The notes below the pieces were generated by a model, which saw only the letters and a list, made by a program, of their open reading frames with translations, ran no database searches and was not told where the DNA came from. Shown here piece after piece: positions 27,130 through 64,000 of a DNA stretch of 64,000 nt. The translations under genes and the position numbers were made by a program. The DNA comes from Candidatus Omnitrophota bacterium. GTDB lineage: Bacteria; Omnitrophota; Gorgyraeia; Duberdicusellales; 4484-171. Where the stretch lies: contig JAFGQU010000002.1 of assembly GCA_016935525.1 (NCBI GenBank), forward strand, positions 34,560 to 98,559. Direction: 5' to 3'. Each line of letters begins with the position of its first letter. The first letter of the stretch is position 1.

Positions 27130-27213
27130 TGCGAGGGAGGGGATTTGAACCCCTACAGTATCGCTACCGCTAGCCCCTCAAGCTAGTGCGTCTGCCAGTT
27201 CCGCCACCCTCGC
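27130..27213 (-). tRNA. tRNA-Leu (GAG anticodon), long variable arm
   Basis: Reverse complement GCGAGGGTGGCGGAACTGGCAGACGCACTAGCTTGAGGGGCTAGCGGTAGCGATACTGTAGGGGTTCAAATCCCCTCCCTCGCA. Anticodon stem CTAGC/GCTAG, loop TTGAGGG, 14-nt variable arm, T-arm GGGGTTCAAATCCCC. Confidence 0.8.
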
Positions 27214-42484: not shown

Positions 42485-42755
42485 TATCGGAAAATACCAA
42501 CAGATCTTTTTCCATTCTGAGGTTCATCTGCCTCAGCTGCCTAAGCTCAAAAAACATACGGAGCGCAAGAAAGGTTATATTACAGTTTAAAAACAAAGTC
42601 GCAAGCAAAGTCATACCCAGGATAAAAATACCCCGGTCAAAAACAAAATATTCCCGGTGGTCAATCCATAAGAACCCTATCCCCAATACTACCCCGCTCA
42701 TAATGATGATCTGGGGGGCAAGAAGCAATGCGGCAATTTTTATTCGTCGGCTCAT
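42411..42755 (-). CDS. small membrane protein with cytoplasmic coiled-coil tail (same architecture as 37416-37889)
   Basis: Three hydrophobic helices, then RQLRQMNLRMEKDLLVFSDIVEKCTKTQTRKIDELSRIMEQHL. Confidence 0.4.
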   Translation of the reverse strand: MSRRIKIAALLLAPQIIIMSGVVLGIGFLWIDHREYFVFDRGIFILGMTLLATLFLNCNITFLALRMFFELRQLRQMNLRMEKDLLVFSDIVEKCTKTQTRKIDELSRIMEQHL

Positions 42756-42765
42756 GTTCTCCTCC

Positions 42766-44163
42766 TTAATTAAGATTTTCTAAATCAGCAAAAGGGATGT
42801 TCACTTGTGCGGCAAGCTCCCTCTTTATGAATCTTATCTTTTCGATCCTCTCGCCAAAGTCGTGAGATTCGGATCCGGCATACCATTGACGCATCCGGTC
42901 GCGACCGGTCTCGATAATACCAAATCCCTTTTTGCGGGCGCCGAGGACCGAAGCCGGTAAAAGCACCAAAGGATGCACAAAGATATTGTGAATATTGCGC
43001 CGGTTCCTCTTAAGAAAATCTACAGTATACCGTATATCTTCCCAGGTCTCCCGGGGAAACCCGACAATGATATTTACGCTCACCTGAATGCCGGCGGCAT
43101 GGGTATCGCGAATAACTTTCCGGGCTTCCGTAAGCGAAAACCGTTTTCCCATAGACTGTAAGACCTTCTCGCTCCCGCTTTCCAGCCCCAGACTTACTGA
43201 CCGTAAACCCGCCTGATACGCCTTTTTCAGAAAAGGATAATCCATCTCCCGGCGGATCATCATCTGCCCGCCCCAGGAGACCGGCGGACGGCTCCGGATA
43301 AGTAATGCGATCAACTTACCGAGCATGATGACATCACCGTTGATCAACGAATCATTAAAATGGAAATAGGTCACGTGCGGATTTTTTTCTAATTGATACA
43401 CGATCTCTTCATATACATTCTCGGCGGTTCGCCGGCGGTACTTTCCCCAAAGGACCGATTCCTCACAAAAAAGACAACGGTTAATACATCCCCGGCTGGT
43501 TGATATAGGAAGCCCGGCTAAATCATAATGAGACAGGTCGAAGTCGGAGAAATCAGCAAACGGCAAGAAATCGAGCGGGACCGGAGAAGGGATATCAGGT
43601 TTTCCAACGAAAACGCTGTTGCTGTCTTTGTAGAGAAACCCGGAACAGGAAAAAGACCGGTTTTCTTCTATACTGTGAAACAATTCCCTTAACGCGATTT
43701 CTCCCTCGCCCAGACATACGGCGTCGACATAGTCAGCCCTGCACAATTCCTGAGCAAGTTCACGATGGAAACAAGAAAACCCGCCGAACACGATCTTTAT
43801 CTGAGGGTCCCTTTTTTTTATCATCGCCGCGACCGCTTCGCTATACCAACGTGAAGAATCGTAGATACTAAACCCAACCGCTTGATAACATTCCCCCATC
43901 AGTTCATCAACGAGTTGGTCTACATAGTATCGGTGACTTTCAATCGCCCGGTTGACAGATTCTCTCTCATACCAGTCGAGAGATTCTTCTTTTGAACATG
44001 AAGGAGCTCTTCGTTTAAACGACATATATCTCTGTATACGCACATTAAAATCATAACAACGGACCTGATGTCCATCCTGTTTCAAACAGGACGAAAGCAG
44101 GGCGAGATTATAAGGAGGCACCAATGTGCTCCATTGCGGACATTGAATTAATGCTACTTTCAT
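42766..44163 (-). CDS. B12-binding domain radical SAM protein (class B)
   Basis: MKVALIQCPQWSTLVPPYNLALLSSCLKQDG; TSRGCINRCLFCEES. Confidence 0.8.
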   Translation of the reverse strand: MKVALIQCPQWSTLVPPYNLALLSSCLKQDGHQVRCYDFNVRIQRYMSFKRRAPSCSKEESLDWYERESVNRAIESHRYYVDQLVDELMGECYQAVGFSIYDSSRWYSEAVAAMIKKRDPQIKIVFGGFSCFHRELAQELCRADYVDAVCLGEGEIALRELFHSIEENRSFSCSGFLYKDSNSVFVGKPDIPSPVPLDFLPFADFSDFDLSHYDLAGLPISTSRGCINRCLFCEESVLWGKYRRRTAENVYEEIVYQLEKNPHVTYFHFNDSLINGDVIMLGKLIALLIRSRPPVSWGGQMMIRREMDYPFLKKAYQAGLRSVSLGLESGSEKVLQSMGKRFSLTEARKVIRDTHAAGIQVSVNIIVGFPRETWEDIRYTVDFLKRNRRNIHNIFVHPLVLLPASVLGARKKGFGIIETGRDRMRQWYAGSESHDFGERIEKIRFIKRELAAQVNIPFADLENLN

Positions 44164-44202: not shown

Positions 44203-45327
44203 TTAATGAAAAAACCCGAATAATCTTTTCTTTTGGAAAAAATCCTCTATTTCCATAAAAGCTTCCCGATAAGAACACCACTGCAGACAAGGAGTCGCAC
44301 AGTTTCTGATCATATCCCGATAATCTCCCGCCACGGATGAATACCAAAGATCGCTCAGTGTAGACCGTTTTATATCGCCAAACGCCGCATCTTGATTTTT
44401 CTGACTGACGCAAAAGTAGAGTTTACCTTCCTGAACTACCTGGACTCGGTTGAAACCGGCGTAACAGGGAAAACTATCTGAGAGAGGGCCACCGTTAAAA
44501 TATTTTTTTATCAATTCCAAATACCTTGTGCTGTTGGCAATAAAGTTAAACTGTGCCGGGCTCTGTTTTTTGTATTCTATCAATGAGTCTATTCCCTTAT
44601 TAAGAAGGACAAGCCGCTCAGAGGGAACGAATCCGGGATACTGCTCGACTCGCTCGGTCTGATCGACATTCCTGGCGACGACCGGCTGGAAAAGGATACG
44701 TTCACATTCGATATCTCGGCACAGTCTGACTATTTCCAGAAGCTCTTCGATATTTTCGTCCATAATCGTGCATACCGCGACCACTTTAGGAAACCTCCGT
44801 TTTTCCTGTCTCTTGATCTGGTGTAAAGAACGTATATTCGATATGATTTTATCAAAAACTTTTTCTCCGCGGATCCGGCTGAATGTCATATCCGTCGCCG
44901 CATCGATGGATATGCTCAACCAATCGACCCCGTGTTTTAGACAGTTGAGTATGCGCGCCGGATCAAGTAACACGCCATTGGTCACTATCACGGTGGCTAA
45001 CTGAAGTCGTTTTGCCTGTTCGGTGAAATCAAATATGTCTTTGTGCAGAAACGGTTCCCCCCCTATAAAAAGGACAGTCCCGACGCCCAGCTCCTTAGTT
45101 TCGCGTATAATCTTATGTACAGTAGCCGAATCGATCTCAACCTGACGCCCGGCTTGTTTAAGAAATCCTTTTTGTTCACTCATCCCGCACATTTTACATT
45201 TCAGGTTGCAATCAAACGTAAAATTAATTTGCACCATATCGGGAGCAACCAGAGGATAATTGAGCTTACGGGAAAGCCAAAACAGGGAATTTTTCCTTAA
45301 CAAATCGAATACGCTCAAAATATTCAT
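44203..45327 (-). CDS. radical SAM/SPASM-like protein
   Basis: RKLNYPLVAPDMVQINFTFDCNLKCKMCGMS, FIGGEPFLHKD; C-terminal CYAGFNRVQV...CATPCLQWCSY. ATGA overlap with upstream gene. Confidence 0.8.
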   Translation of the reverse strand: MNILSVFDLLRKNSLFWLSRKLNYPLVAPDMVQINFTFDCNLKCKMCGMSEQKGFLKQAGRQVEIDSATVHKIIRETKELGVGTVLFIGGEPFLHKDIFDFTEQAKRLQLATVIVTNGVLLDPARILNCLKHGVDWLSISIDAATDMTFSRIRGEKVFDKIISNIRSLHQIKRQEKRRFPKVVAVCTIMDENIEELLEIVRLCRDIECERILFQPVVARNVDQTERVEQYPGFVPSERLVLLNKGIDSLIEYKKQSPAQFNFIANSTRYLELIKKYFNGGPLSDSFPCYAGFNRVQVVQEGKLYFCVSQKNQDAAFGDIKRSTLSDLWYSSVAGDYRDMIRNCATPCLQWCSYREAFMEIEDFFQKKRLFGFFH

Positions 45328-46586
45328 CGTATACAGATCCTGCAAGGATTCTTTTGAGGCTCCCCCGGTTTTTTTAAAAGACGAAGTTGATGACGGTAAA
45401 ACTTAAAATACGGCTTGCCTTTTTTTGCCAATAAAGCGGAATACTCTTCGATTTTTGAGTAAAGCTTATCACGGATACTCTCAACCTCTCGAGTCTGCGG
45501 GAGCGCATCTAATTTCTTCAAAAATATTTTTATTTCCTGTAAGATATCTTCGGGAAAATACACACAATCCTGGAGGCAATGCCGCCGGCAATGCCTTACC
45601 AGTTCCCGCATTGCCGTCGCGTTTTCCGAAACCCAGTTGTTCTGCAAAGATTCTTCCTTGAGATCGCCATACCGCCCGCGGCAACTCCATAACTGTCCAT
45701 TACAATCAATAACGATCCTTTTAATCCCTTCATAACACTTGAAATTGCGGTCTATTTTTTCTCCCCTAAAATAAGCCGGAATCGATTCCAAAATGGCCCG
45801 GTCGGTAGCGATATAAATATCCTGAAGTTCTTCCTTCAGAGAAACGACCTTTTTTAAAATACGTTCCAGTTTCCGGACTTGCTTATCTGTAGGCCATAAC
45901 GGATTCGATTTCATCTCGTACATCTTAGTATTACTGAACAATACCGGCTGAAACACGATCATATGACATTTCTTTTGCCGGGCAAAATCAATCATAGGGA
46001 TAATATCATCGATATTCGTATCCATAATAGTGAAATTTATACCTAACAGAGGAAATTGCGCGTGTTTTTTATTTTTATAATAATTTATTCTGTCGATACT
46101 ATGAGCGGCTTTTTCAAAAGTGCCCGGCCCTCTGATTTCATCATTTCTTGGGCCCAATCCGTCGATGGAAACCGTCATATGGTTCAACTTACGTTCGATA
46201 AGGCCCTGGATGATCTCGTCATTAAGCAATGTCCCGTTAGTAATAATGCTCAACCATTGAATGCCGCGGGAAAGCGCGAACCCTACGATATCAAGTATGT
46301 CTTTATGGAGAAACGGCTCTCCGCCGGAAAGGATTAAATGGTTAATACCCATATTTTTTATCTGCAGAATAATATCTTTTATTTTCAAAGAGCTCAGTAC
46401 TTCGGCATCTTCGGCAAAGCCTTGCGGAATATCACACATCCGGCACCGTAAGTTACACGCACTGGTAATAGAGAAATATACATGTTCCGGAGGGATGAGC
46501 GGATAAGAAAGCTTCCGGCTCACAAAGAAACTCAATTTTCTTTCGATATCATTATATTCCTGAGCTAACTCTGGATTAAGAACCAT
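45324..46586 (-). CDS. radical SAM/SPASM-like protein
   Basis: RKLSYPLIPPEHVYFSITSACNLRCRMCDIP, LSGGEPFLHKD; C-terminal CYEGIKRIVI...CRRHCLQDCVY. Confidence 0.8.
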   Translation of the reverse strand: MVLNPELAQEYNDIERKLSFFVSRKLSYPLIPPEHVYFSITSACNLRCRMCDIPQGFAEDAEVLSSLKIKDIILQIKNMGINHLILSGGEPFLHKDILDIVGFALSRGIQWLSIITNGTLLNDEIIQGLIERKLNHMTVSIDGLGPRNDEIRGPGTFEKAAHSIDRINYYKNKKHAQFPLLGINFTIMDTNIDDIIPMIDFARQKKCHMIVFQPVLFSNTKMYEMKSNPLWPTDKQVRKLERILKKVVSLKEELQDIYIATDRAILESIPAYFRGEKIDRNFKCYEGIKRIVIDCNGQLWSCRGRYGDLKEESLQNNWVSENATAMRELVRHCRRHCLQDCVYFPEDILQEIKIFLKKLDALPQTREVESIRDKLYSKIEEYSALLAKKGKPYFKFYRHQLRLLKKPGEPQKNPCRICIR

Positions 46587-47646
46587 GAGATTTTACGATT
46601 TTTTTAAAATGACGATTGATAATACTCGATACACTCTGGGCCGATTCCAACGAGTAACAACTTTGCAGGCATGGATTTTTACAGGTTTTCGCCTGTATCC
46701 TTAGCCGGCGGGCCTGGGAAGATTCCCATCCTTTTTTAAGCGATATCTCGTCTAAATTGCCGCATATCCCGTGACAGGAATAGATGAGCGGCTGTTTTTT
46801 CGAATAACAGATAAATACGGTTTTTAATCCACCAAAACATCTCCACTGATTCTGGGTAAGTGTTCCGCGATAATAATCGACCATCAATTCCAAACGCGGT
46901 TCTTCGTATATACGGACATGGCGAGGACTGAATCTTCTTATCTTTTTGATCTCTTCGGCTAATCGCACAATGCTTCCCTGATCCAGCCAGAAATCCGAGG
47001 CTTTGTTATCCATAAAATTAGCGTTATCCTTTACTAACGGTTGAAAATTTATGGTATCCACTTTTAACTCATCAGCCAATTGTACCATATCCCCCAATTG
47101 ATGTACGTTTTTGTTCATGACCGTACACGCGATACCGATAGAAAAAGAACGGTTTTTTGATCTTTCGGCATTTAAAAGAGTGATCGCATCGAGTACTTTT
47201 TCAAAAACCCCCTCCCCCCGAAAGTAATCATTCATATCGCTCAACCCGTCTAATGAAAAATGGAAATGGTTTATTCCCGAATTCGCCACCTTATTGACGG
47301 TTTCTCTATTGATACCCGTTCCGTTAGTAGTGACGATAGAAAACATCTGATTATCACCGATGTACTTGAGTATCCGGTATATATCCTCACGCAAAAACGG
47401 TTCCCCCCCGGTAAGGAGTATTTCTTTGATCCCGTATCGCTTTGCCTCATCGATCACATGAAAAATCTGTTCGGTAGAGAGTTCTTCTTCCTTATCCAGA
47501 TGATGGGCGATACTGCACATTTTACAGTTCAGGTTACAGCGATAGGTAACTGATAGCTGCAATACCTGCGGTTTAGAAAAAGGATACGCCAATAACCTCG
47601 ATATCCAAAACAAAAAATCCCGAAAAAAAGCATCCATATTCCGCAC
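46576..47646 (-). CDS. radical SAM/SPASM-like protein
   Basis: RLLAYPFSKPQVLQLSVTYRCNLNCKMCSIA, LTGGEPFLRED; C-terminal WRCFGGLKTVFICYS...CKNPCLQSCYS. Confidence 0.8.
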   Translation of the reverse strand: MRNMDAFFRDFLFWISRLLAYPFSKPQVLQLSVTYRCNLNCKMCSIAHHLDKEEELSTEQIFHVIDEAKRYGIKEILLTGGEPFLREDIYRILKYIGDNQMFSIVTTNGTGINRETVNKVANSGINHFHFSLDGLSDMNDYFRGEGVFEKVLDAITLLNAERSKNRSFSIGIACTVMNKNVHQLGDMVQLADELKVDTINFQPLVKDNANFMDNKASDFWLDQGSIVRLAEEIKKIRRFSPRHVRIYEEPRLELMVDYYRGTLTQNQWRCFGGLKTVFICYSKKQPLIYSCHGICGNLDEISLKKGWESSQARRLRIQAKTCKNPCLQSCYSLESAQSVSSIINRHFKKIVKSHGS

Positions 47647-47654
47647 GTTATATC

Positions 47655-48689
47655 CTATTCTTCATAATTACAATTAAGTAAAAAATGGCACACGTCTTTA
47701 CAAGACGCTATTTCCCGGCGACGCTCCTGCGCGCTCGTTGAGAGATACAGTTCCCGGAAATCTTGCCGGACATTACCGATGGGTAGTTTATAGGGGCATA
47801 ACGCGATATCTCCGGCAGGAAATATAAAAATACCGAAATCAACCGCGTTACACGGCCCTTTTCTCTCTACGAACCCTTGAGGGTCTTTGAAGTATTTTTT
47901 ATACAAGGCCAATTGCGAAACGGGATTACAGATCTTATGGAATTTTTTCATTTTCAATTCGATAAGCTTATCCAGTACCGAATAGACCTGTTCGATATTT
48001 TGCGGCCAGATGGAACGAGCGGTCTTTTTCAAATACCACTGGTCGTTATGATTCTCGTTAAACGGTTGGGTCACCGCCTGAAAATTAATAAACTTTATAC
48101 TACTATGTTCTTGCGCCCACCGGGCCAAAGAGAGGATATCTTCGAGATTGCTTTCCATGATCGTCGCGGAAATACTGATATCGACTTCGGGAGCGACATA
48201 ATCAAGGCACTCGATAGCTTCAAACACACTTGATAAAGCACCGGTTTTACCGCGCAGATAGTCATGGGTACCGCTTTTAAGACTGTCTAAAGAAAGCATG
48301 ATCGAGTTCACTTTCGCGTCTTTTATTTTCAAAGCTATTTCCGTATCGATAAGATACCCGTTGGAATTCAATACCAATCGAAACCCAAGGCCGCGGATTA
48401 TTTTGATAAGGGGAAACAGATTTTCGTGAGTCAGCGGTTCCCCTCCGCCGATAGAAATATCGATCGGTTCGTGAATATATTCTTTAAAAGAAGAAAAAAA
48501 ACGCTCCCAATCATCAAGCGGCACCTTTGAGACACGCTGGGGTGTCTGCCAAAACTTACACATTTTACATCTCATAAAACAGTTATCGGTAAGATGCACA
48601 TAGCACATCTGCGGGTCTCTAAAATCAACTTTCCCGCAAGAACGGTTTTCCGCGGAAAAATTATCTTTTTTTTCTTGAGGTATTATCAT
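47655..48689 (-). CDS. radical SAM/SPASM-like protein
   Basis: HLTDNCFMRCKMCKFW, IGGGEPLTHEN; C-terminal CNAVDFGIFIF...CKDVCHFLLNCNY. Confidence 0.75.
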   Translation of the reverse strand: MIIPQEKKDNFSAENRSCGKVDFRDPQMCYVHLTDNCFMRCKMCKFWQTPQRVSKVPLDDWERFFSSFKEYIHEPIDISIGGGEPLTHENLFPLIKIIRGLGFRLVLNSNGYLIDTEIALKIKDAKVNSIMLSLDSLKSGTHDYLRGKTGALSSVFEAIECLDYVAPEVDISISATIMESNLEDILSLARWAQEHSSIKFINFQAVTQPFNENHNDQWYLKKTARSIWPQNIEQVYSVLDKLIELKMKKFHKICNPVSQLALYKKYFKDPQGFVERKGPCNAVDFGIFIFPAGDIALCPYKLPIGNVRQDFRELYLSTSAQERRREIASCKDVCHFLLNCNYEE

Positions 48690-48724
48690 ATCGACCTTTT
48701 ACCGGTCTCTTTTGGCAATGTTCT

Positions 48725-49726
48725 TTAAAAATAATGACAAAATTGTAAACAGGGATTTTTACATTTTTGGGCTTTCCTTCTCATCTGTCCGGCTTTAGAA
48801 GAATACCAGGCCTGACGTATACCCATCCGATACACATCGCCGCAACTATCCTGGCAAAAAAACACACAAGAACTCATCCGTCCATTACGTTTTTCTCCGG
48901 CAGTAATGATCATGCTTTTATACCCGGCAGCGCATTTCTTGTGAATGCTTTTAAGCGAATAGTAATCCTCAAGGAGGCCGGCGTCGGGATTCCAGTCAAT
49001 ACGAAGATTTTGATACTCATGAGTTAATATCATTTTAAAGTCGTCTTTAAGTCGCATCACGTCATCTTCCTGGGGCCACAAATCGCTTGCCTGAACGCCT
49101 TTAGGAGAATTCTGAGGATCGGTATTGCGCACCAGATACGGTATAAAATTCATCACGTTTACCCCTAACCTGTCGGCAGTGTTCGTCATTTCATACAACT
49201 GCCCGCAGTTGTTACGATAGATCACTGTGCCTACTCCGATCGATTTTACCGGATTAAGCTTCCGCAATAAGACGATGTTCTGCAGCAGACGATCATAGGC
49301 CCCCGCCCCTCTTAGTCGATCATGAGCATCTTTGTTCCCGTCAAAAGAGAAATGCACGTGATCGATAGAGGAAGCAGCGATTCTTTCAATCATCTCCCGG
49401 TTATAATACCCGTTCGTCGTCACCGAAACATCCATATTTCGCTTTTTGATATAGTCGGATATCTCGAATATCTCTTTTACCAAAAACGGTTCTCCGCCGC
49501 TTAATACCACCTGAGAGATCTTCATCTGGCAAGCTTGATCGATAATATCAAATATCTTCGCTACATCCACCGCGCCGCGGGGAGCATCTACCGGCTGTTT
49601 GATGCTGCAGATGCCACACTGTAGATTACATTGGTTGGTAAGCGAAAGAATCATCATCTGCGGCGGCAAAAGCGGCCTCCCCAGATACCGTGACAACCCG
49701 TACACCATCTTTTGAAAAAAAGTCAT
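48725..49726 (-). CDS. radical SAM/SPASM-like protein
   Basis: RYLGRPLLPPQMMILSLTNQCNLQCGICSIK, LSGGEPFLVKE; C-terminal CKNPCLQFCHYF. Confidence 0.8.
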   Translation of the reverse strand: MTFFQKMVYGLSRYLGRPLLPPQMMILSLTNQCNLQCGICSIKQPVDAPRGAVDVAKIFDIIDQACQMKISQVVLSGGEPFLVKEIFEISDYIKKRNMDVSVTTNGYYNREMIERIAASSIDHVHFSFDGNKDAHDRLRGAGAYDRLLQNIVLLRKLNPVKSIGVGTVIYRNNCGQLYEMTNTADRLGVNVMNFIPYLVRNTDPQNSPKGVQASDLWPQEDDVMRLKDDFKMILTHEYQNLRIDWNPDAGLLEDYYSLKSIHKKCAAGYKSMIITAGEKRNGRMSSCVFFCQDSCGDVYRMGIRQAWYSSKAGQMRRKAQKCKNPCLQFCHYF

Positions 49727-49728
49727 AG

Positions 49729-50889
49729 TTACTCCCGGTCCCGTTCTAACAAATATTGATTAAACTCATACGTCTCGCTGCGTAAAGGGCCACAGCATTC
49801 ATGACAGGCCTGGTGAATAAATTGTTTTTGCGATACTTTTTCTCTTAACTTGTTCATCTGGTCGCCCTGCCAGGCTTTTTGGTAAGAATCCCCTATTTTA
49901 CATAATTTGTCTTTGATCAGTGTGCAGGGAGAAAGGTACCCGTCTTCGGAAATCACCAGAGTTTTCCATACATGTATACAATAGAACGGCAGTTGAAGGA
50001 TCCCCTCTTTTTCCTCTCTCCCCGCATTTCTCTCCGGTTTCTTTCCATAATGAGCGAGAAAAAAATTGATATTATGTTTGATCCTCGTCTCATCCGCCTT
50101 TTGCCGCAACAACGAGACGCATTCCCGGGATTCCTCTTCGGTCAGCATCAGCTGTTCGGCGCGAGAATGGACGTTCATCAAAGGCATCAACTGGATCTCT
50201 TCTACTTTTTTTTCAATACAATAATCGATAAGCTCAAGGATCCGACGATAATTTTTCTTATGGACCACCGGGCAACAGATAATGTAAGGAGCCGTTTTAT
50301 CCGATGCCGTTTTTATATCGGCGAATTTCGTTAACGCATTGTCTATTTTCCGGAAATTACCCGGAACCCCCCGTATTTCATCATGGATTTCTCCGGAAGA
50401 AGAATCCAGGCTGATCCTCAACAGATCCCAACGTATATCGTGTAACGCGCCGATAAACGCCTCATCGAGCAGTAACCCGTTCGTAATAAGTATTCCTCTC
50501 ATATTACATTTTTTTATCTCCCTTAAGATCCCGATAATATTTTTATATAATAACGGTTCTCCGCCCCGCCCGCCGATATTCCATACTTCGGTCCCGTTAC
50601 GAGAAGATTCCCGCACAATACCCACAATGCGTTCATAAGGGACTGCCGGTTCAAACTGACGTTGCGAATCGGAATCGTATCCTCCGCAATATTGGCAACG
50701 GGAATTACATATATACGCAGGGAACCATTCGATCATGTATGGACTCTCTAATGAAGAGAATATCGAAGAATAGAGCCGGCCGTAAAGATCTCCGGAAGCG
50801 ACCGGCTCCTTTTGACTATGCCGATACAATATTTTATCGGCGATCTTGCGCAAAAATCCGGATTTTTTAGTACCTGTTTTTTGGTTCAT
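49729..50889 (-). CDS. radical SAM/SPASM-like protein
   Basis: YICNSRCQYCGG, GGRGGEPLLYKN; C-terminal CIHVWKTLV...CTLIKDKLCKIG...CHECCGP. Confidence 0.75.
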   Translation of the reverse strand: MNQKTGTKKSGFLRKIADKILYRHSQKEPVASGDLYGRLYSSIFSSLESPYMIEWFPAYICNSRCQYCGGYDSDSQRQFEPAVPYERIVGIVRESSRNGTEVWNIGGRGGEPLLYKNIIGILREIKKCNMRGILITNGLLLDEAFIGALHDIRWDLLRISLDSSSGEIHDEIRGVPGNFRKIDNALTKFADIKTASDKTAPYIICCPVVHKKNYRRILELIDYCIEKKVEEIQLMPLMNVHSRAEQLMLTEEESRECVSLLRQKADETRIKHNINFFLAHYGKKPERNAGREEKEGILQLPFYCIHVWKTLVISEDGYLSPCTLIKDKLCKIGDSYQKAWQGDQMNKLREKVSQKQFIHQACHECCGPLRSETYEFNQYLLERDRE

Positions 50890-51857
50890 ATTACGTCATA
50901 TATTTCCCGATAGGAATGTTTACTCAATAACACATGCATGCAATTCGAGCATATTTCTCGATAACGCGAGCGCATCTCGACATATTTTTGATTATTCCAG
51001 ATATCCTCAAATGAAGATTGAGTGATATTCCCCATCAGGTCGTTATTCATACAACATCCTAACACGTCGCCGTTGGGGAAAAGATAAAGATTCTTCCACA
51101 ATACCGGGCAATGCCAATCGGCCACTTTTTGTAACGTATTCACGACAGTAAGTGCGGGATGCATCTTTCGGAAGCGTTCCAAAGCGTCTAAAAAATCGAC
51201 GAACTCTCCGTAAGAAGGAAGGTATTCGTCTCTTAATTCTTCTTTGAGAAAAAGGACTTTTGTGTAAATCAGGTTTTTGCAGTGATACTTTGCCCCGACT
51301 TCAAACAGTCGCAATGAATCATCCAGGTTTTTTTTAGTCACTACCGCCGAAAGGTTCAGGTTGAATCCGTAGACATTCTTATATTCCCTCAATCTCTCCA
51401 GAGTCGGAACGATCTTTGAAAAAGGGTACCCCCTGGTCAACTCATTGGTCTTGGGCCCGTCTACGGATATGGTAATGCTCCGGGTACACGGCAACAGTTT
51501 AAATAATATCTTTTCATCGATATCTATCCCGTTGGTGGTAAGAAAAAATTCTATACCCAGAGGAGCCAGTATTTCAATCAATTCTCCCAGATAGGGATAA
51601 AGAAAAGGCTCTCCGGTCACGCTGAATTCCACATACTTTGCCCGGGTAAACAGAAAAATATTATTTTTTATCAATTCCAACGGCATGGTCCCATACTGAA
51701 AACTTTTTTTATTAAGGCCGTGTATTTCACAATACACGCAACGGGCGTTACAATTGTTATTGGTCTGAAGATTGATGATCGTGGGGTAAGACCGCAGGAC
51801 TGTTTTATGTTCACAATATTCCTGCTGATTGAGCTGGGCATTCACTCTACGATCCAT
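50886..51857 (-). CDS. radical SAM/SPASM-like protein
   Basis: TNNNCNARCVYCEI, VTGEPFLYPY; C-terminal WHCPVLWKNLYLFPNGDVLGCCMN...CSNCMHV. Confidence 0.75.
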   Translation of the reverse strand: MDRRVNAQLNQQEYCEHKTVLRSYPTIINLQTNNNCNARCVYCEIHGLNKKSFQYGTMPLELIKNNIFLFTRAKYVEFSVTGEPFLYPYLGELIEILAPLGIEFFLTTNGIDIDEKILFKLLPCTRSITISVDGPKTNELTRGYPFSKIVPTLERLREYKNVYGFNLNLSAVVTKKNLDDSLRLFEVGAKYHCKNLIYTKVLFLKEELRDEYLPSYGEFVDFLDALERFRKMHPALTVVNTLQKVADWHCPVLWKNLYLFPNGDVLGCCMNNDLMGNITQSSFEDIWNNQKYVEMRSRYREICSNCMHVLLSKHSYREIYDVI

Positions 51858-52818
51858 AATTTTCCTGATTGATATGGAGCCCCTGCAAACAAGGTTCCTT
51901 GCAGGTCTTTATTCGTTCCAGTTCGGCCTGATATTCTTCGGAATAGAAAATCTCCTTAAAATCATATGCGTACAGCGGCATCGGGACCTCTTTCCCGCAC
52001 AGATACGGTAATCCTTCACAGGTGATGTTCAGCGATTCGTATCCGGTAAGACATCGCCCGTTTTTTTCTAACACATTGGCGAAATAGTGCATATACGACC
52101 TGATTAAAGGTGCCGGACGGGTACTTATATATTCATGAGCTACCAGATAATCGATGATCTCTTTTAACTTTGCTTTCTCTTTTTCGGTAAGCCGGAATTT
52201 TTCCCGCACATAACATAATTCATTGTTGGGGATTACCGGCTGGACATCAAATCGCACCCCTTTAAATCTCTCAAACTCTTTAAGAAAATCCACAAAATGA
52301 GAAAAATTCTCCGGCATCAATATTGAACTTACCGTCAGGCTCGCGATCTTCTCGGCAAGAAAATATTCTTTATACACCCGCTCAAAATTGTGTACCGTCT
52401 TCTTAAACGTCCCGCCCCCTCTTATAAAATCATGGTCATATTGAAGGCCATCGATAGAAAAGATTATTCCTATTTTTTTCAATTCGTGTTCGTCAAATTG
52501 ATCCAAAAAAACTCCATCAAATAAAGTCCCGTTAGAAATGACATTGACGGTATTTATGTCGCATGCGCAGGTAAATTTCATAATGTGTCCAAGGTCGTCT
52601 CTTAAAAGCGGCTCTCCGCCGCCGAAGGTAATCCGCTGAATAGCACAGTTTCTTTCGAGATTTCCGATAATCTTGATCCACTCCTGGGAAGAGAGTTCCG
52701 ATTCCGCGCCATATTTCCCTTTACCGGTGGTACACATCAGGCATTGCAGGTTACAACGGTTGGTGATCGCGATATAAAATTCGCATATATTAAAATGTTT
52801 ATCTCTCATCTGGCTCAT
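51847..52818 (-). CDS. radical SAM/SPASM-like protein
   Basis: ITNRCNLQCLMCTT, FGGGEPLLRDD; C-terminal CLTGYESLNITCEGLPYLCGK...CKEPCLQG. Confidence 0.75.
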   Translation of the reverse strand: MSQMRDKHFNICEFYIAITNRCNLQCLMCTTGKGKYGAESELSSQEWIKIIGNLERNCAIQRITFGGGEPLLRDDLGHIMKFTCACDINTVNVISNGTLFDGVFLDQFDEHELKKIGIIFSIDGLQYDHDFIRGGGTFKKTVHNFERVYKEYFLAEKIASLTVSSILMPENFSHFVDFLKEFERFKGVRFDVQPVIPNNELCYVREKFRLTEKEKAKLKEIIDYLVAHEYISTRPAPLIRSYMHYFANVLEKNGRCLTGYESLNITCEGLPYLCGKEVPMPLYAYDFKEIFYSEEYQAELERIKTCKEPCLQGLHINQENYGS

Positions 52819-53863
52819 GACATCCTGCTTTTTTTTCTACACCATCACCTTCAAGATAATATTCCAATTCCTGATTCAACTGTTTTATCGGGCTGCAACA
52901 GGACTCATAACAATAAGGATATTCTCTTAAAAATTCGTATTCGCTTAAGATCCGGCCGTAGATCTTTTCTAAGTCGTCCCGGATGACGTTAAATTTTGTC
53001 TTTAAGGGGTCGCCGTTGCATTTAAGCACCTGCCCATCACAGTTGATTAAAAGTTTATACAGATGAAAATAACATATCTTCTTCAAGGGGCTGTGCTGGA
53101 CTGGTCGATGGGAATCCCTGCCGTCGGGGGCCTTTTCGATCCACTCTAACCGGTTAAACGTGACTTTGGTCTCGATTTCTGACAGTAGTGCGCGGAAAGA
53201 CTGCATCTCTTCATCATGAAGACTGAGCGCATCATACTGTTCATTCATCCTGACCAGTTTCAATAATGTAACATTCTTGGCGTTATATGAATCGACGATC
53301 CGAAAATAGTCTTTGACGTACGCATAATTCAATTTATTCACCACCATATTGAAATTGAGATGTACCCGCGGATTTTGTTCTGCCGAATAGCGCAGAAATC
53401 TATGAATCGCTTCCAAGTACTTTTGCTTACCCGGCATCGGCCGCAATTGATATTGGATATCGTCGGAGAAAGAATCGATCGAAACGATGATAATGTCCCA
53501 TCCGATCTCCTTTAAAAATTTCGCGAAATCTTCATCAAGCCGACTCCCGTTGGTCAAAAGCGTGCCAAAAAAACCTCTCTTTTTAATCTCGCCCATAAGG
53601 AATCTCAGGTTTTTAAATACCGTAGGCTCCCCGATCAAAGAAGTCAGCGAGATTTCTTTTACGCCTAAGGCCTGCGCCGAATCAAGAAGACGCAACAGGG
53701 TATCTTTTGACAACAGGTCTTTCGGTTTAGCGCTTATTTTCCCTGAACAATAAAGACAATCCAGATTACAAGAACTGCTTAATGCCAAGTCTAAGCAATA
53801 AGGCCCTTTAGGAGAACAGGTCAGATTATGTTGTACGCGGGCGAGAAAAGCTTGAGAGATCAT
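52799..53863 (-). CDS. radical SAM/SPASM-like protein
   Basis: LSSSCNLDCLYCSGK; C-terminal ICYFHLYKLLINCDGQVLKCNG...CYESCCSP. Confidence 0.7.
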   Translation of the reverse strand: MISQAFLARVQHNLTCSPKGPYCLDLALSSSCNLDCLYCSGKISAKPKDLLSKDTLLRLLDSAQALGVKEISLTSLIGEPTVFKNLRFLMGEIKKRGFFGTLLTNGSRLDEDFAKFLKEIGWDIIIVSIDSFSDDIQYQLRPMPGKQKYLEAIHRFLRYSAEQNPRVHLNFNMVVNKLNYAYVKDYFRIVDSYNAKNVTLLKLVRMNEQYDALSLHDEEMQSFRALLSEIETKVTFNRLEWIEKAPDGRDSHRPVQHSPLKKICYFHLYKLLINCDGQVLKCNGDPLKTKFNVIRDDLEKIYGRILSEYEFLREYPYCYESCCSPIKQLNQELEYYLEGDGVEKKAGCHEPDER

Positions 53864-53865
53864 TT

Positions 53866-56298
53866 TTAAATATTTTTATACATATAACAATCCTGAAAAC
53901 AGCGCACCTTACACTTTTTCGCTTTATCACGAAACGTACGGGCCTCCGGAGAATACCATATCTGTTTTAACGGACGGCTACTGATATTGCCTAACGTACT
54001 GCTGCATAGCCACACATCTCCATTCGCAGTGATGGATAATCGGTTATATCCGGCAAAACATTTCCAATTCACATACTTTTTAGAAAGCAGATAGTTGAGG
54101 TACGCCTGAGGATAAAAAAAGACGCAATTATGAAAACGGCAATAGCCTTCGATTTTCCCGATCTGATCAAATAATATTCCGGGATGTTCGATGTCGGCAA
54201 GCGGACTGTTGATGCCGGCGATCACGTTAGTATTATCATCGACTACGTTTAAAAGCTGGAATTTAGAATAAGGATACAACTGGTGCAGATATCTCACCAG
54301 TTGGTAAAGATCCTGATAATTATATCTCGTGATCAGGATATTAAAACATACTTCAAAACGGACACCTTTGTGCTGCACAAAGTCATATAGTTTTCTTAAA
54401 TTCTCGGTGACGCGGGCGAACGCCCCCGCTCCTCTTATCTCATCATGGGCCGAGGGAAACCCGTCCAGAGAGATATTCAACAGATCGAAAGAGACTGTTT
54501 CGGCAAGAAACCGGTCAAGAAGCATACCGTTAGAACTGAGGTGGAATGAACGACGGTCGTTTTTTACGGTCTCAGCGATCCGGGAAAAATCGGGATGCAG
54601 TAACGGCTCTCCTCCGGTAAGCTGAATGATCTTGTGCGGGTTTTTGAACTCATCGATTTGCTCCAGCAGATCGGTAAACATCGAAAAATCAAGATGCCCC
54701 ACGCATTTATTGGCTTGGCACATCGGACAACGGAGATTACAATGGTCAGTTATTTCGATCATAAAATACTGAGGCTCAACAAAAGGATGCCCGATAAGAC
54801 GGGAAAAAATAAATTTCATTTTTGCCGGATCGATCCTCTGTTTCACTTTTTTCCAACGGTTATAGTAAGATAAGCTCCTCAGAAAAATATTTTTTCCGTT
54901 TCTCTTTGGCGGAGAAAAAAAAGAAGCGAATTTGGCCAAAGAATTCAATAAGCCATAGTGTTTTTTACCGGCATTCTCAATATAGGTCTCAAGCAGGCGC
55001 AGATCCGATTCAAGATAATCTTTTTCCCTCGCGCTCAATCCTCCGATCCGTAGATTCTGCTCAAGAGACCTGATGAAATCATCGATATGCTCTTCGATCA
55101 AATGGTATCCGGCTACAAGGATCGGCCGCAACGGCAACTGGGGATACCGATGGATATATTCTTCCAGAAAATGCAGTTCCCGCATGAGTAAAAAAAAGTT
55201 ATTGTGTTCCATGAGCCGCTGATGGATCTCACTTAATGTATCTGCCGAAGGACGTATAGAACAGAATTGCACGCAATTTGCCTTGCAATTTTTTATGGTC
55301 TCCCGGAAAGACCGGGCCGCGAGGCCAGACCAAACTTCAAAGAGCGAATCTTTTTCGGCTAAACCGAAATGCTGGTCTTTTTCTTTATTGGGCCCATTAC
55401 ACACAAAACAGATCTTCTCTCCTACCGCCAGAGCCCGGCAAAAACCGGCATAACATTTATCAACATAAATCTCGCTGGAAAAATATGTATAGATCTTTTC
55501 GTGAGGGACTTCGATATGGACCCAGGTATGGAAGTTACGCTCTTTTATCTTATCAAGCGTATCTTTAAGCAAAGGCAACCGCTCAGGCGGGATCCAAAAC
55601 CTATCTTCACGACGCCCTTTTAAATCGCTGTTACACACATAGGGTTGAATATGGATACCACAGACATTATACTTTTCACAGAAATCGATCATCTCATACA
55701 TGGTATCCAGGGTCTGGTCCATCAACACCGAACAGGTATCGACCAGAGGATATTTGGTGTTACGGCGTTGTTTTTCAACGTTGATATATTCGAGAGCGTC
55801 AATAATTTTTTCAAACACCCCTGCTCCTCGCAAAGAATCATGAATCTCCTTCTTCGGAGAATCAATGGATATCCCTAATGTCTCCAGCCCCGAATCAAAT
55901 AATCTATTGATTGTTTTATGATCCAGCAGAGTACCGTTGGTATTCACATGCGTACGCACATGAGGGTAGTAGTCGCGGACATATTTTATGAGACTAAAAA
56001 TGTCCGGCCGCAGCAGCGCTTCGCCTCCGGTGAAATACACTTCTTTAAGATTCCCTAAACGATACGCATCGTCAATGAGTTTTTTCACATAAAAAGTATC
56101 TATCTCTTTTTCTTTCACTCGCCAGACACCGCACATCGCACACTGCAAATTACATCTTGTGGTGAGGATCAACTGCAGCATATGCGGGCCGATCAGGGGA
56201 ATATTGAGGGCGAGAGAAAAATTATAGAGATAATCTTCTTTTATCGAATCGAAAAATACAAGTTGCTCGTTGATATTATCCAGACAATAATGAAACAT
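53866..56298 (-). CDS. tandem double radical SAM/SPASM-like protein (two complete rSAM modules in one 810-aa polypeptide)
   Basis: Module 1 has LTTRCNLQCAMCGVW (aa 46-60), FTGGEALLRPD and CKANCVQFCSI. A ~140-aa helical linker follows. Module 2 has ITDHCNLRCPMCQAN (aa 516-530), LTGGEPLLHPD and CKVRCFQDCYM. There is no in-frame stop between them. Confidence 0.8.
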   Translation of the reverse strand: MFHYCLDNINEQLVFFDSIKEDYLYNFSLALNIPLIGPHMLQLILTTRCNLQCAMCGVWRVKEKEIDTFYVKKLIDDAYRLGNLKEVYFTGGEALLRPDIFSLIKYVRDYYPHVRTHVNTNGTLLDHKTINRLFDSGLETLGISIDSPKKEIHDSLRGAGVFEKIIDALEYINVEKQRRNTKYPLVDTCSVLMDQTLDTMYEMIDFCEKYNVCGIHIQPYVCNSDLKGRREDRFWIPPERLPLLKDTLDKIKERNFHTWVHIEVPHEKIYTYFSSEIYVDKCYAGFCRALAVGEKICFVCNGPNKEKDQHFGLAEKDSLFEVWSGLAARSFRETIKNCKANCVQFCSIRPSADTLSEIHQRLMEHNNFFLLMRELHFLEEYIHRYPQLPLRPILVAGYHLIEEHIDDFIRSLEQNLRIGGLSAREKDYLESDLRLLETYIENAGKKHYGLLNSLAKFASFFSPPKRNGKNIFLRSLSYYNRWKKVKQRIDPAKMKFIFSRLIGHPFVEPQYFMIEITDHCNLRCPMCQANKCVGHLDFSMFTDLLEQIDEFKNPHKIIQLTGGEPLLHPDFSRIAETVKNDRRSFHLSSNGMLLDRFLAETVSFDLLNISLDGFPSAHDEIRGAGAFARVTENLRKLYDFVQHKGVRFEVCFNILITRYNYQDLYQLVRYLHQLYPYSKFQLLNVVDDNTNVIAGINSPLADIEHPGILFDQIGKIEGYCRFHNCVFFYPQAYLNYLLSKKYVNWKCFAGYNRLSITANGDVWLCSSTLGNISSRPLKQIWYSPEARTFRDKAKKCKVRCFQDCYMYKNI

Positions 56299-56348
56299 AT
56301 TTGTATATCTAAAAAATTTTCTTCACCCTCGGGCTCTTTAGGCTTACG

Positions 56349-58295
56349 TTACACGATACATTCTACCTTTATTTCTCCCGAGGTTTTCCGAGGATCACAA
56401 AAACAAGGTAAAAGACAAGGCCAGGGACACCGGGCAGCCTGGTTGTAAGCATGTATCCTGGCTGCCCCGTCAAGTATATCTCTTAACGACTGCTTTTTTA
56501 TATCGCCATAAAAAGAGAAACAAGTCGCACTTTTACCTTCATTCGCAATAAGCATCGTCTTTTGAGCCGACTTACAGCGGACATCGGTACCGCGCAGCTG
56601 ACGACGATAATATTTTTTCATTAAAAGCAGGTTCTCTTCCGAATTGCAAATGAAATCTTTATAGCGCTTTTTCGTTTGGATCAGCAGATCAACGGTTTTA
56701 TCCAGTAACGGCAGTTGATCCGGAGTGACCCAGAACGGAGACTGCCTCCGGTCAGCCATTCTCAAATTATTCGGCAGAAGCGCTTGAAATTGCAACGAAT
56801 TTACCTTTAATTCATAGAGAAAAGGGATTAACTGCGGCAATTCTTTTAGATTTGCTCCGCAGATAATACTGATTACATTAAACCGGACCTGGGCGCGGCG
56901 GCTTTTAAGCGCTGCCAGCAAACGCAGACTTTCTACCGTATGTTCCCAGGCGCAAGGCGAGTTCCGCATATAATTATGGATTCGGGGAGTAATCGAGTCG
57001 AGAGAGATTATTAAAGATATCGTCTCGTCGGTCAGATAGGGTTCTAAACGAGAAAACATTTCTTTTACGGCCAGACCATTACTTAATACGCCTATCTTTT
57101 TCAGGCCGAGGTGTCGGGCATGATCGAATATTTCCGGAATATCTTTCCTCAAAAGAGGTTCTCCACCGGAAAGGGTAATTTCTTTAATCCCGAGCCGGCG
57201 CGCTTCACGTAAGACTTTTTTTACATACCTCAACTCCAAGTCAGACTCCTCTTTGGCGGTTTTCCAGATGTCACATATCCGACAGGAAAGGTTACAACGA
57301 TGAGTGATGTCCAATATCAAGAGTTGCGGCGGCGGCAGCAGTTGTGGTGTAATTGTCTTATTTTTCTTTACTCTCAGGTACTCGGCAATATTACCCAGTA
57401 TATATACCGCCTTATGGATGCTCAGGCAGATGTACATCGACAGTTTTTTATTGATATTTTTGATCTGTTCTTTACAAATAAGTTTTCTTGCCAATATATA
57501 CACAAAACGGGGAATTTTAAGGATATTGAACGCGGTAGCCCGCCAAAAAGAAAATGTTCCCGGATCAAGCTCTTTCAATAAAGGATGGTCACGGTGGAGA
57601 TATTGGACCAAAAAGTTTCCGCGACCATAGATATAGGCTTGTCGAATAAAACTAAAAAAAGTCTCATCCCGGTCATGGACCACAATAATATCCTGATCCC
57701 AGAGAAACCTCTTACCATTTTTAAAAAGACGCCAGAAAAATTCCAGGTCTTCCCCTCCGGGAAAAGGAAAATGTTCATTAAACCGGGCCTGCTCAAATAC
57801 CTCTTTTTTAAAAGAGACATTGCAGGTGGGGAAGAATATCGCTTGCATTCCTTGACCTATTTTCACTTCAATACTGCACGTACTTAAAAACTGCCCCACC
57901 ATTACATAGCTTCTCTGCTGCGCGGGCAGAGTATCGCCTCCGATGGCCGCAATACCGGGATTATTTCCGTGGGCGGTGACCATTTTTCCTGCCCAATCCC
58001 GCCGGCAGATACAATCATCATCAACAAACCCGATAAGTCGTCCCCGGGCTTGATGTATGCCGAGATTTCTTGCTGCCGCCGGGCCCCGGTGATGTTGCGA
58101 GAAATAGCGCACCTGCGTAAATTCTTTAGCAAAATCCGAAATCAGTTGTTCGACCCGACAGTCGGAGGCATCATCAACAACGATAATCTCAAAATGTTCC
58201 TGAGGATAGTCCTGACCAAGCAAAGCATTAATACAATTTTTGAGCTTTTCTATCCGTTTATATGTGGGGACAATGATCGAAATGATGATATTCAT
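56349..58295 (-). CDS. family 2 glycosyltransferase fused to a C-terminal radical SAM/SPASM-like domain
   Basis: N-terminal IISIIVPTYKRIEKLKNCINALLGQDYPQEHFEIIVVDDASD and FVDDDC (GT2 DxD). A hydrophobic linker follows. The C-terminus has ITHRCNLSCRICDIW, LSGGEPLLRKD and RCPWPCLLPCFC. Start set at MNIIIS (58295), which has AAGGAG 6 nt upstream. Confidence 0.8.
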   Translation of the reverse strand: MNIIISIIVPTYKRIEKLKNCINALLGQDYPQEHFEIIVVDDASDCRVEQLISDFAKEFTQVRYFSQHHRGPAAARNLGIHQARGRLIGFVDDDCICRRDWAGKMVTAHGNNPGIAAIGGDTLPAQQRSYVMVGQFLSTCSIEVKIGQGMQAIFFPTCNVSFKKEVFEQARFNEHFPFPGGEDLEFFWRLFKNGKRFLWDQDIIVVHDRDETFFSFIRQAYIYGRGNFLVQYLHRDHPLLKELDPGTFSFWRATAFNILKIPRFVYILARKLICKEQIKNINKKLSMYICLSIHKAVYILGNIAEYLRVKKNKTITPQLLPPPQLLILDITHRCNLSCRICDIWKTAKEESDLELRYVKKVLREARRLGIKEITLSGGEPLLRKDIPEIFDHARHLGLKKIGVLSNGLAVKEMFSRLEPYLTDETISLIISLDSITPRIHNYMRNSPCAWEHTVESLRLLAALKSRRAQVRFNVISIICGANLKELPQLIPFLYELKVNSLQFQALLPNNLRMADRRQSPFWVTPDQLPLLDKTVDLLIQTKKRYKDFICNSEENLLLMKKYYRRQLRGTDVRCKSAQKTMLIANEGKSATCFSFYGDIKKQSLRDILDGAARIHAYNQAARCPWPCLLPCFCDPRKTSGEIKVECIV

Positions 58296-58387: not shown

Positions 58388-58416
58388 ATTATACCACCCC
58401 TTAAAAGAAGTAACAA
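58388..58416 (-). promoter_or_regulatory. putative sigma70-like promoter (extended -10) in the only sizeable gap of the cluster
   Basis: On the minus strand: TTGTTA (plus 58411-58416), 17-nt spacer, TGgTATAAT (plus -10 at 58388-58393). It lies 93 nt upstream of the GT2-rSAM start. Confidence 0.3.
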
Positions 58417-63353: not shown

Positions 63354-63563
63354 CTTTCAATTATAGCAAATTTCTTATGTTTTTTCTAAAAAACTTCCGG
63401 TACCGATTATTGCCGTTTTTTATACATTTCTCCTTGCGAATTCATTTTTGGGTATTCGTCGGGGACAGAAGAGAAAGAATTATTTCTGTTTCCTCTTGTG
63501 CGATAAGGACCTAAGAATAAAATCTTTAAGGGGCGTATCGGGAAGCTCTTCCCTGACCTTTTA

Positions 63564-63950: not shown

Positions 63951-64000
63951 CTCAAATTCTTTTATATTAAAACATTGATCTGGCCCCTGGGTAAACGTGC

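Follow-up and report, generated by a model that had tools for sequence, protein, structure and literature searches.

A run of radical SAM genes in a putative surface-glycan export locus of an Omnitrophota bacterium

A 64,000-nucleotide stretch of the genome of a Candidatus Omnitrophota bacterium (GenBank assembly GCA_016935525.1, contig JAFGQU010000002.1, positions 34,560–98,559; hereafter the window) carries a run of twelve consecutive radical S-adenosylmethionine (rSAM) genes, which begins with a gene (G1) encoding a GT2 glycosyltransferase fused to an rSAM enzyme. The run is probably the tailoring section of an operon for an ATP-binding cassette (ABC) transporter-dependent surface glycan of the O-antigen or capsule kind, in which a lipid-linked glycan would be radically tailored before export. 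We favor a glycan because the cluster around the run encodes GT2 domains, the GT2-rSAM fusion, a Wzm/Wzt exporter, an amidotransferase, and a methyltransferase, because WecA-type, GT4, and ligase-like genes accompany the locus in relatives, and because the cluster holds no genes of peptide or lipid pathways. Domain content, intact motifs, gene order, orthology, fusions, and conservation across the phylum are shown by the sequences; we infer the glycan substrate, the placement of the radical steps before export, and each individual reaction.

The radical SAM run and its gene cluster

From about position 63353 to 27810, every gene is on the minus strand, and each gene from G1 downstream to G12 has a Pfam Radical_SAM match above threshold. 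The earlier note placed twelve rSAM genes with 13 domains in the interval 44203–58295; the interval holds 11 rSAM genes with 12 domains (G1–G11, with G2 double), and the larger figures hold only if the next gene, G12 (42766–44163), is added. The run is free of genes of other families, as had been stated: every gene in it is an rSAM gene, and the gaps, the largest of which measure 50, 39, and 35 nt, are too small to hold a further gene. The tight packing is likewise borne out, with junctions between −22 and +50 nt (in order, starting at G11/G12 and ending at G1/G2: +39, −22 or −4, −11, +8, +35, +2, −4, −11, −20, +2, and +50 nt). If rSAM genes account for a few percent of the genes in a genome, the likelihood that twelve would stand consecutively by chance appears negligible.

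The earlier note also listed three ATGA stop/start overlaps, of which one (45324–45327) lies in the interval, while the other two (41654–41657 and 31042–31045) lie further downstream in the same cluster. Further ATGA junctions, absent from that list, are present at 50886–50889, 40485–40488, 37416–37419, and 62010–62013. The overlap at 45324–45327 hinges on the ATG at 45327 as the start of G11, a start backed by a 374-aa database protein (P0121) and by orthologs of 371–377 aa. G1 starts at the ATG at 58295, with an AAGGAG Shine-Dalgarno sequence.

The whole minus-strand cluster (27810–63353, 35.5 kb) comprises 18 rSAM genes with 19 rSAM domains, six of the genes lying beyond the twelve-gene run. 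The remaining content includes three GT2 domains, an AsnB-type amidotransferase, a methyltransferase, a Wzm/Wzt ABC exporter, and a flavin adenine dinucleotide (FAD)-dependent oxidoreductase. The cluster ends before tRNA-Leu (27130–27213), which is followed by the gene for phosphoenolpyruvate carboxykinase (PEPCK). An Rfam scan returned two tRNAs only, with no cobalamin or SAM riboswitch.

As predicted from sequence, the cluster combines an ABC-2 permease and an ATPase with glycosyltransferases, which is the gene content of Wzm/Wzt-type glycan export. Specifically, the Wzm-type permease (61231–62013) matches Pfam ABC2_membrane with 66 bits and shows weak matches to galactan Wzm and KpsM, and the Wzt-type ATPase (58494–61223; 909 aa from an internal ATG) matches ABC_tran with 61 bits, the NCBIfam models TagH and galactan Wzt falling below cutoff. 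The C-terminal extension of Wzt, of about 650 aa (residues ~241–909), consists of three repeats of about 220 aa, with local alignment scores of 86–100 as compared with 25 ± 4 for shuffled sequence; the Wzt proteins of relatives are of similar length, 905–929 aa. Upstream of Wzm, and sharing an ATGA overlap with it, the first gene of the cluster (62010–63353) encodes an FAD-dependent oxidoreductase of the amine-oxidase family (Pfam Amino_oxidase and NAD_binding_8; NCBIfam PRK07208-type below cutoff). Three GT2 domains are present in G1 (56349–58295), in a 441-aa protein (37891–39216; Glycos_transf_2, 119 bits), and in a 251-aa protein encoded by the last gene of the cluster (27810–28565; Pfam). 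The amidotransferase gene (32114–34006) has Asn_synthase and GATase_7 domains and scores 421 bits against TIGR01536, cutoff 267, and the class I SAM methyltransferase gene (41654–42403) matches Methyltransf_31/11.

We compared the cluster with one related locus from GTDB (L001), four from exact look-ups (L006–L009), and 78 from metagenomes (L010–L087), each seen within 10-kb flanks; L002–L005, GT2-only matches from the genome contig scan with G1, were dropped, L001 being the sole true relative in that scan. The full GT2-rSAM architecture of G1 recurs in more than 120 protein clusters at 45–57% identity, nearly all labelled Omnitrophica or Omnitrophota, and G1 itself is 100% identical to an Omnitrophica protein (P0001). 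The orthologs of G11 show the same distribution. In relatives, the locus has a conserved head made of the FAD oxidoreductase, an optional TPR gene, Wzm, Wzt, and G1, followed by a variable rSAM run; FAD oxidoreductase orthologs stand at the very front of this head. In several relatives, a GT4 gene and a WecA-type transferase gene of family PF00953 precede the head, the latter lying two genes upstream of Wzm in L001, L007, and one further related locus. One relative also has sugar epimerase/dehydratase genes and a Wzy_C/O-antigen-ligase-like gene. The rSAM run of relatives reaches 7–10 consecutive genes within the flanks and in some cases has PMT_2 (GT-C), GDSL, methyltransferase, and GT2 genes scattered through it. 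The window is thus an extreme example of an Omnitrophota locus type and not unique.

An extended −10 element (TG-TATAAT) marks two promoter-like sites on the minus strand, one in the 177 nt that separate Wzt from G1 (58388–58416) and one just upstream of the first cluster gene (63360–63388). Scans for promoters and terminators yielded no more sites than shuffled sequence does, and the two sites are leads only.

Features of the radical SAM enzymes

Each of the 19 rSAM domains of the cluster contains one intact CX3CX2C motif and scores 62–156 bits against Radical_SAM (PF04055; gathering threshold 29.5). The 16 domains of the non-B12, twitch-like kind, including those of X1 and X2, can be aligned end to end. 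In this alignment, residues C40, C44, C47, G90, E91, N117, G118, S140, R153, C288, C306, and C347 (G11 numbering) are invariant, and C343 is kept in at least 90% of the domains. Residues C40, C44, and C47 constitute the ligand motif of the radical SAM cluster, while G90 and E91 are the GE of the GGE motif for SAM binding. On these residues, none of the rSAM domains looks like a pseudoenzyme.

The C-terminal segments carry a cysteine pattern of the form CX13GX4C ... CX3C(X3C), often C-x-x-P-C-L-Q-x-C. With members of the SPASM/twitch subfamily (anSME, PqqE, SuiB, SkfB, and MoaA) they share a beta-hairpin within CX13GX4C, placed at residues 294–304 in a model of G11, and further C-terminal cysteines. 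The canonical seven-cysteine SPASM motif (CX9-15GX4C ... CX2CX5CX3C ... C) is absent, since the 16 domains have only four conserved cysteines in common, and most paralogs have CX3CX3C where SPASM proteins have CX2CX5CX3C. Pfam SPASM (PF13186) exceeds its gathering score in five proteins only (G2, G5, G6, G11, and G14). Four conserved cysteines would fit a single, twitch-like auxiliary cluster; the twitch-type NCBIfam model NF033640 gives 43–98 bits, below its cutoff of 170. In G12, G15, and X3, a predicted B12-binding domain (PF02310; 47.8, 46.7, and 55.1 bits, cutoff 32.1) precedes the rSAM core, which is the architecture of class B, or cobalamin-dependent, rSAM enzymes.

The AlphaFold model of G11, with a predicted local distance difference test (pLDDT) score of 86.6 and a predicted template modelling (pTM) score of 0.87, is nearest to BlsE, a cytosylglucuronate decarboxylase (TM-score 0.75, normalized to the target). 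The other top fold matches are SuiB, DesII, SkfB, PqqE, viperin, and BtrN; enzymes of sugars and nucleotides are prominent among the matches, and peptide-acting ones occur as well. Sequence searches of the PDB returned remote matches only, with E-values from 7e-12 to 8e-4. The tungsten-cofactor maturase model TIGR04317, a recurring top NCBIfam match, was rejected (at most 206 bits, cutoff 380).

G1 (648 aa) has Glycos_transf_2 at residues 13–126 and Radical_SAM, of the twitch kind, at residues 337–497. Its family invariably contains the motifs DxD, CNLxCRIC, and CxWPCLLPC. In the model of G1 (pLDDT 86.6), a GT-A domain is followed by long helices and then by the rSAM domain, and the GT-A part is most like PcManGT, TarP/TarS, and cellulose and hyaluronan synthases.

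The SPASM-like features raise the question of whether the locus is a cluster for a peptide that is made on ribosomes and then post-translationally modified (RiPP), in which the rSAM/SPASM enzymes would cross-link or epimerize a ribosomal peptide before its glycosylation and export. The rSAM proteins do show many sub-threshold NCBIfam matches to peptide maturases (WgkB, StsB, PqqE, and RiPP C-methyltransferases), the fold matches include SuiB and SkfB, and the AsnB homolog could in principle be lasso-cyclase-like. However, no maturase family reaches its cutoff, all RiPP-maturase NCBIfam models scoring far below, and the AsnB protein passes the asparagine-synthase cutoff but not that of lasso cyclases. 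The proteins lack an N-terminal RiPP recognition element, because CX3CX2C begins at residues 16–61, and a Pfam search of the rSAM proteins gave no PqqD-like domain. Moreover, the gaps hold no plausible precursor open reading frame (ORF), the small ORFs encoding membrane proteins with a coiled coil and two predicted transmembrane helices; a leader peptidase is missing as well, and the transporter belongs to the ABC-2 Wzm/Wzt kind. One apparent gap of 281 nt (42485–42765) was considered as the site of a precursor peptide and rejected, as it encodes one of these membrane proteins, of 114 aa. We therefore consider a peptide substrate extremely improbable. Loci of this type are likely to be misread as RiPP clusters, and the present finding warns against that annotation.

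The two small membrane proteins occupy positions that are conserved in related loci. The 114-aa protein (42411–42755; Shine-Dalgarno AAGGAGG) lies between the B12-binding rSAM gene G12 and the methyltransferase gene, and a similar protein has the same position in L007. The 157-aa protein (37416–37889) lies between the GT2 gene and the HpnJ-like B12-rSAM gene G15, in a conserved string of GT2, small protein, B12-rSAM, and GT2. These proteins may be membrane anchors or chain-length factors.

Age, modularity, and coupling of the paralogs

The rSAM paralogs of the window are only 20–35% identical in pairwise comparisons, while other Omnitrophota loci contain orthologs of 13 of the cluster's 18 rSAM genes, at 47–62% identity; for the remaining five (G5, G8, X1, X2, and X3), the sampled flanks of related loci contain no ortholog of at least 40% identity. 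At the DNA level, a search for long repeats found none, and the only repeats are stretches of 38–52 nt coding for the GGEPL and CNLxC motifs, at 60–83% identity. The paralog identities and the lack of long repeats rule out an assembly artefact or a recent duplication. The earlier note had proposed an old expansion, and this is well supported: since most paralogs have orthologs at 47–62% identity elsewhere, exceeding the at most 35% between the paralogs themselves, the expansion is old. The paralogs are old, functionally distinct families that have been reshuffled among genomes.

In order of transcription, G1 is followed by G2 (53866–56298; 810 aa), in which two paralogs are fused, with two Radical_SAM stretches, a SPASM match, and two CX3CX2C motifs. 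The twitch-type G3 (52799–53863; orthologs at 47–48% identity in L016 and L069), G4 (51847–52818; 60–62%), and G5 (50886–51857; with SPASM) come next, followed by G6 (49729–50889; with SPASM; 53% in L016) and G7 (48725–49726; 55% in L016). G8 (47655–48689) has a top match elsewhere of 30% identity, and G9 (46576–47646, from a GTG at 47646 or an ATG at 47637) has orthologs at 57% identity, found in 18 loci. The run is completed by G10 (45324–46586; 47–50%), G11 (44203–45327; SPASM/twitch, 374 aa, P0121 being 100% identical, with orthologs at 44–64%, all in Omnitrophota), and the B12-binding G12 (orthologs at 44–48%). Further downstream lie G13 (40485–41657; 59–63%, in 32–34 loci), G14 (39265–40488; SPASM, 48 bits), and G15 (36070–37419; B12-binding and HpnJ/BchE-like, orthologs at 50–52%). 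Beyond these, a TPR-repeat protein (34278–36005; Pfam TPR families) belongs to a kind of gene that recurs in related loci, and the rSAM genes X1 (31042–32037; 96 bits, with the PTO1314 family as top NCBIfam match, below cutoff), X2 (30047–31045; 93 bits, joined to X1 by an ATGA junction), and X3 (28531–30033; B12-binding) complete the set. All these assignments are Pfam-based, and all genes are on the minus strand.

Across 80 loci, 389 rSAM ORFs fall into about 43 orthogroups, and the order of these orthogroups is conserved locally. In particular, an ortholog of G13 is followed by one of G14 in all 24 of 24 loci, G9 by G10 in 14 of 14, and G10 by G13 in 12 of 14, while G11 is adjacent to G1 in 26 of 30. 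A block of G12, the N-terminal half of G2, G3, G4, G6, and G7 recurs in L001, L014, and L016, the same loci in which the N-terminal half of G2 is a stand-alone gene. The 441-aa GT2 gene comes after a G14 ortholog in 14 loci. The array is modular, being built of blocks of two to six rSAM genes whose combinations differ by genome, and the run of the window is a concatenation of such modules. As in serotype-variable O-antigen loci, reshuffling of this kind is what one would expect of a variable surface-polysaccharide locus. As a further recurrent module, the segment 36070–39216, with GT2, small membrane protein, and HpnJ-like B12-rSAM genes, is found in many loci.

Neighboring paralogs are fused in several relatives. 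Specifically, in L069 and L080 (12031–19202), orthologs of G3 and G4 form one protein of 666 aa, orthologs of G6 and G7 one of 694 aa, and a B12-rSAM enzyme and a G2-like domain one of 991 aa, each with two CX3CX2C motifs. L008 and L050 encode a GT2-rSAM-rSAM protein of 963 aa (10001–12892), and L008 additionally encodes a second GT2-rSAM protein. In L044 (2922–4704, 594 aa) and in the database protein P0222, an ortholog of G11 is fused to a methyltransferase.

The earlier note read the stop/start overlaps as a sign of stoichiometric co-production, such that the paralogs would be made in equimolar amounts by translational coupling and assemble into a multi-enzyme complex. The genes are indeed tightly packed, and 5 of the 11 junctions of the run overlap. 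However, among the co-directional junctions of housekeeping genes in the same window (dnaG, rpoD, gatAB, tsaD, SMC, etfAB, purC, and PEPCK), 10 of 18 overlap, four of them in the ATGA manner, and overlaps even join unrelated genes, as in purC/PEPCK and etfB/etfA. The overlaps thus reflect genome compaction and operon organization and are not specific evidence of a stoichiometric complex, and the co-production argument finds no support in them. For compact genomes in general, overlapping start and stop codons should not count as evidence for protein complexes. In addition, three junctions of the run are gaps of 35–50 nt, and module content varies freely across genomes, which argues against an obligate complex of fixed composition. 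On the other side, relatives fuse neighboring paralogs, G2 of the window is itself such a fusion, and neighbor pairs are invariant. The fusions are far better evidence than the overlaps that neighboring enzymes act in sequence or in physical linkage, and together the pairs and fusions lend independent support to a functional or physical coupling of neighbors. A stoichiometric complex of all the paralogs nevertheless seems unlikely to us.

A second segment of the locus appears to lie elsewhere in the window. A B12-rSAM gene and a GDSL-family gene form a pair at 330–1802 and 1768–2835, 25 kb from the cluster and separated from it by housekeeping genes; the protein encoded at 330–1802 scores 30.5 bits for B12-binding, just under the cutoff of 32.1. 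Orthologs of the outlying B12-rSAM gene (53% identity) stand directly after G1 and G11 in L021, L051, and L052, and in L008 a GDSL and B12-rSAM pair follows G1. In this genome the locus seems to be divided over two places.

Proposed radical tailoring of an exported glycan

In the pathway that we propose, anciently diverged rSAM enzymes would abstract hydrogen from unactivated sugar carbons, using a toolkit of 16 twitch/SPASM-type domains and four cobalamin-type enzymes, three of which are in the cluster. As suggested by family membership, the B12-class enzymes would perform C-methylation, and the twitch-class enzymes oxidation, epimerization, deoxygenation, or decarboxylation; ring rearrangement is also among the possible reactions. 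The G1 fusion would couple one glycosyl transfer directly to one radical step, while the amidotransferase and the SAM methyltransferase would decorate the chain further. Wzm/Wzt would then export the finished chain, the three-repeat extension of Wzt probably reading the modified chain or its cap.

Several observations weigh against this pathway. A Pfam search of Wzt (E up to 0.1) returned ABC_tran only, and the extension is not the known Wzt_C carbohydrate-binding module. The window contains no genes for nucleotide-sugar synthesis, no initiating phosphoglycosyl transferase, and no O-antigen ligase. The WecA-type transferase and GT4 that adjoin the locus in relatives are missing from the window: the segment that precedes the FAD oxidoreductase (63354–64000) has an unrelated partial ORF ending near 63564, with a 210-nt intergenic region between, and the initiating transferase must be encoded elsewhere. 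A glycan pathway with only three GT2 domains beside 19 rSAM domains would be oddly proportioned. An NCBIfam search with all rSAM proteins of the cluster placed none in a curated family at its cutoff, and the fold search yields peptide modifiers (SuiB, SkfB, PqqE, and anSME) with scores similar to those of the sugar enzymes. Finally, each individual reaction is predicted from what is known of the enzyme family.

In an alternative reading, the rSAM enzymes act upstream of polymerization, remodeling one or a few nucleotide-activated sugars into exotic donors that the three GT2 enzymes then transfer. This differs from tailoring of the lipid-linked glycan in timing only. Remodeling of sugars by BlsE, DesII, BtrN, AprD4, and GenK is known from antibiotic pathways, and many steps per sugar would agree with 19 rSAM domains for three GT2 domains. 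The fusions of consecutive rSAM enzymes in relatives (G3+G4, G6+G7, and B12-rSAM with a G2-like domain) fit sequential steps on one small substrate, and the closest folds include enzymes of nucleotide-linked sugars (BlsE, DesII, and viperin). However, the cluster lacks genes for a nucleotidyltransferase, a sugar kinase, and a 4,6-dehydratase that could provide or activate precursors, and modification after transfer would agree with the GT2-rSAM fusion just as well. We regard a precursor pathway as the less likely of the two timings, yet as a real possibility.

The HpnJ-like character of G15 brings in a further alternative, namely that the locus modifies a membrane lipid (polyprenol, hopanoid-like, or membrane-spanning), with GT2 adding the head group and Wzm/Wzt flipping or exporting the glycolipid. 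In hopanoid biosynthesis, the pairing of HpnI (GT2) with HpnJ (B12-rSAM) is well established, and the pair converts a sugar of the hopanoid side chain into a cyclitol. Here, likewise, G15 follows a GT2 gene and has HpnJ as its top NCBIfam match; G15 and X3 are weakly like HpnJ, several paralogs are weakly like HpnH and the tetraether synthase Tes, all below threshold, and the long amphipathic helices after the GT-A domain of G1 resemble those of the membrane-associated GT2 enzyme PcManGT. The scores are nevertheless far under the cutoffs (261 as against 578 bits for HpnJ, at most 70 as against 225 for HpnH, and at most 73 as against 450 for Tes), and a small membrane protein stands between the GT2 and G15. 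No hopanoid genes are nearby, neither the cluster nor related loci contain genes for isoprenoid, squalene, or acyl-lipid synthesis, and the context of WecA-type, GT4, Wzm, and Wzt genes is that of a classical polysaccharide. A lipid product is therefore very unlikely.

Among known systems, the Wzm/Wzt pathways for O-antigens and other glycans (such as those of E. coli O9a and Klebsiella O2a and the mycobacterial galactan exporter) are close to the locus. Like them, it has an ABC-2 permease and an extended Wzt beside GT2 genes and, in relatives, a WecA-type transferase, a GT4, and an O-antigen-ligase-like gene. In contrast, those pathways tailor their chains with ordinary epimerases, dehydratases, and methyl- or acetyltransferases, whereas here 18 rSAM genes dominate, and the Wzt extension is composed of repeats in place of a Pfam Wzt_C module. 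The sugar-acting rSAM enzymes of antibiotic pathways (BlsE, DesII, and BtrN) have in common with the paralogs an rSAM core and a C-terminal auxiliary-cluster domain, while GenK/Fom3-type class B methyltransferases share the B12-binding architecture of G12, G15, and X3; sequence identity is only 13–21%, however, and the corresponding NCBIfam models score below cutoff here. To our knowledge, sugar-acting rSAM enzymes are few and occur singly in small-molecule antibiotic pathways, and we know of no arrays of 12–18 and of none fused to a glycosyltransferase. Proteusin pathways, such as that of polytheonamide, offer an analogy, as a linear polymer is heavily reworked there by a set of rSAM enzymes, among them an epimerase and class B C-methyltransferases; their polymer is a leader-bearing ribosomal peptide, whereas the present locus has neither a precursor peptide nor a leader-recognition domain. 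The building blocks all come from known superfamilies, and export of glycans through ABC transporters is a familiar type of system. A literature search combining radical SAM with Omnitrophota, polysaccharide, O-antigen, glycan, and exopolysaccharide found no description of the locus, and we found no curated family, solved structure, or paper for a GT2-rSAM fusion or an rSAM-dominated glycan locus.

More tentatively, and with less confidence than we attach to the glycan itself, Omnitrophota, which are ultra-small and possibly host-dependent bacteria, might make a surface glycopolymer heavily rewired by radicals through more than 40 dedicated rSAM families, with the GT2-rSAM fusion as a new bifunctional enzyme. 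If so, its residues could bear multiple C-methylations, epimerizations, and deoxygenations, possibly also ring contractions and C-C or ether cross-links, and the polymer would be a carbohydrate counterpart of proteusin peptides and the families a large and so far unused source of radical enzymes that modify sugars. A polymer-export operon with 18 rSAM genes, modular and phylum-wide, points to a surface chemistry that has no characterized precedent, and dozens of orthogroups with clear genomic partners, among them the GT2-rSAM fusion, are concrete targets for enzymology.

Outside the cluster, 3.6 kb beyond its downstream end, an electron-transfer flavoprotein pair is encoded (22176–24181), of which the alpha subunit bears an N-terminal 2x[4Fe-4S] ferredoxin domain. 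The pair could serve as a low-potential electron source for the rSAM enzymes, but purC and PEPCK intervene between it and the cluster. A GAF-GGDEF diguanylate cyclase (17645–18832) is the sole sizeable plus-strand gene in the window, all else being transcribed from the minus strand, and GC skew is negative throughout.

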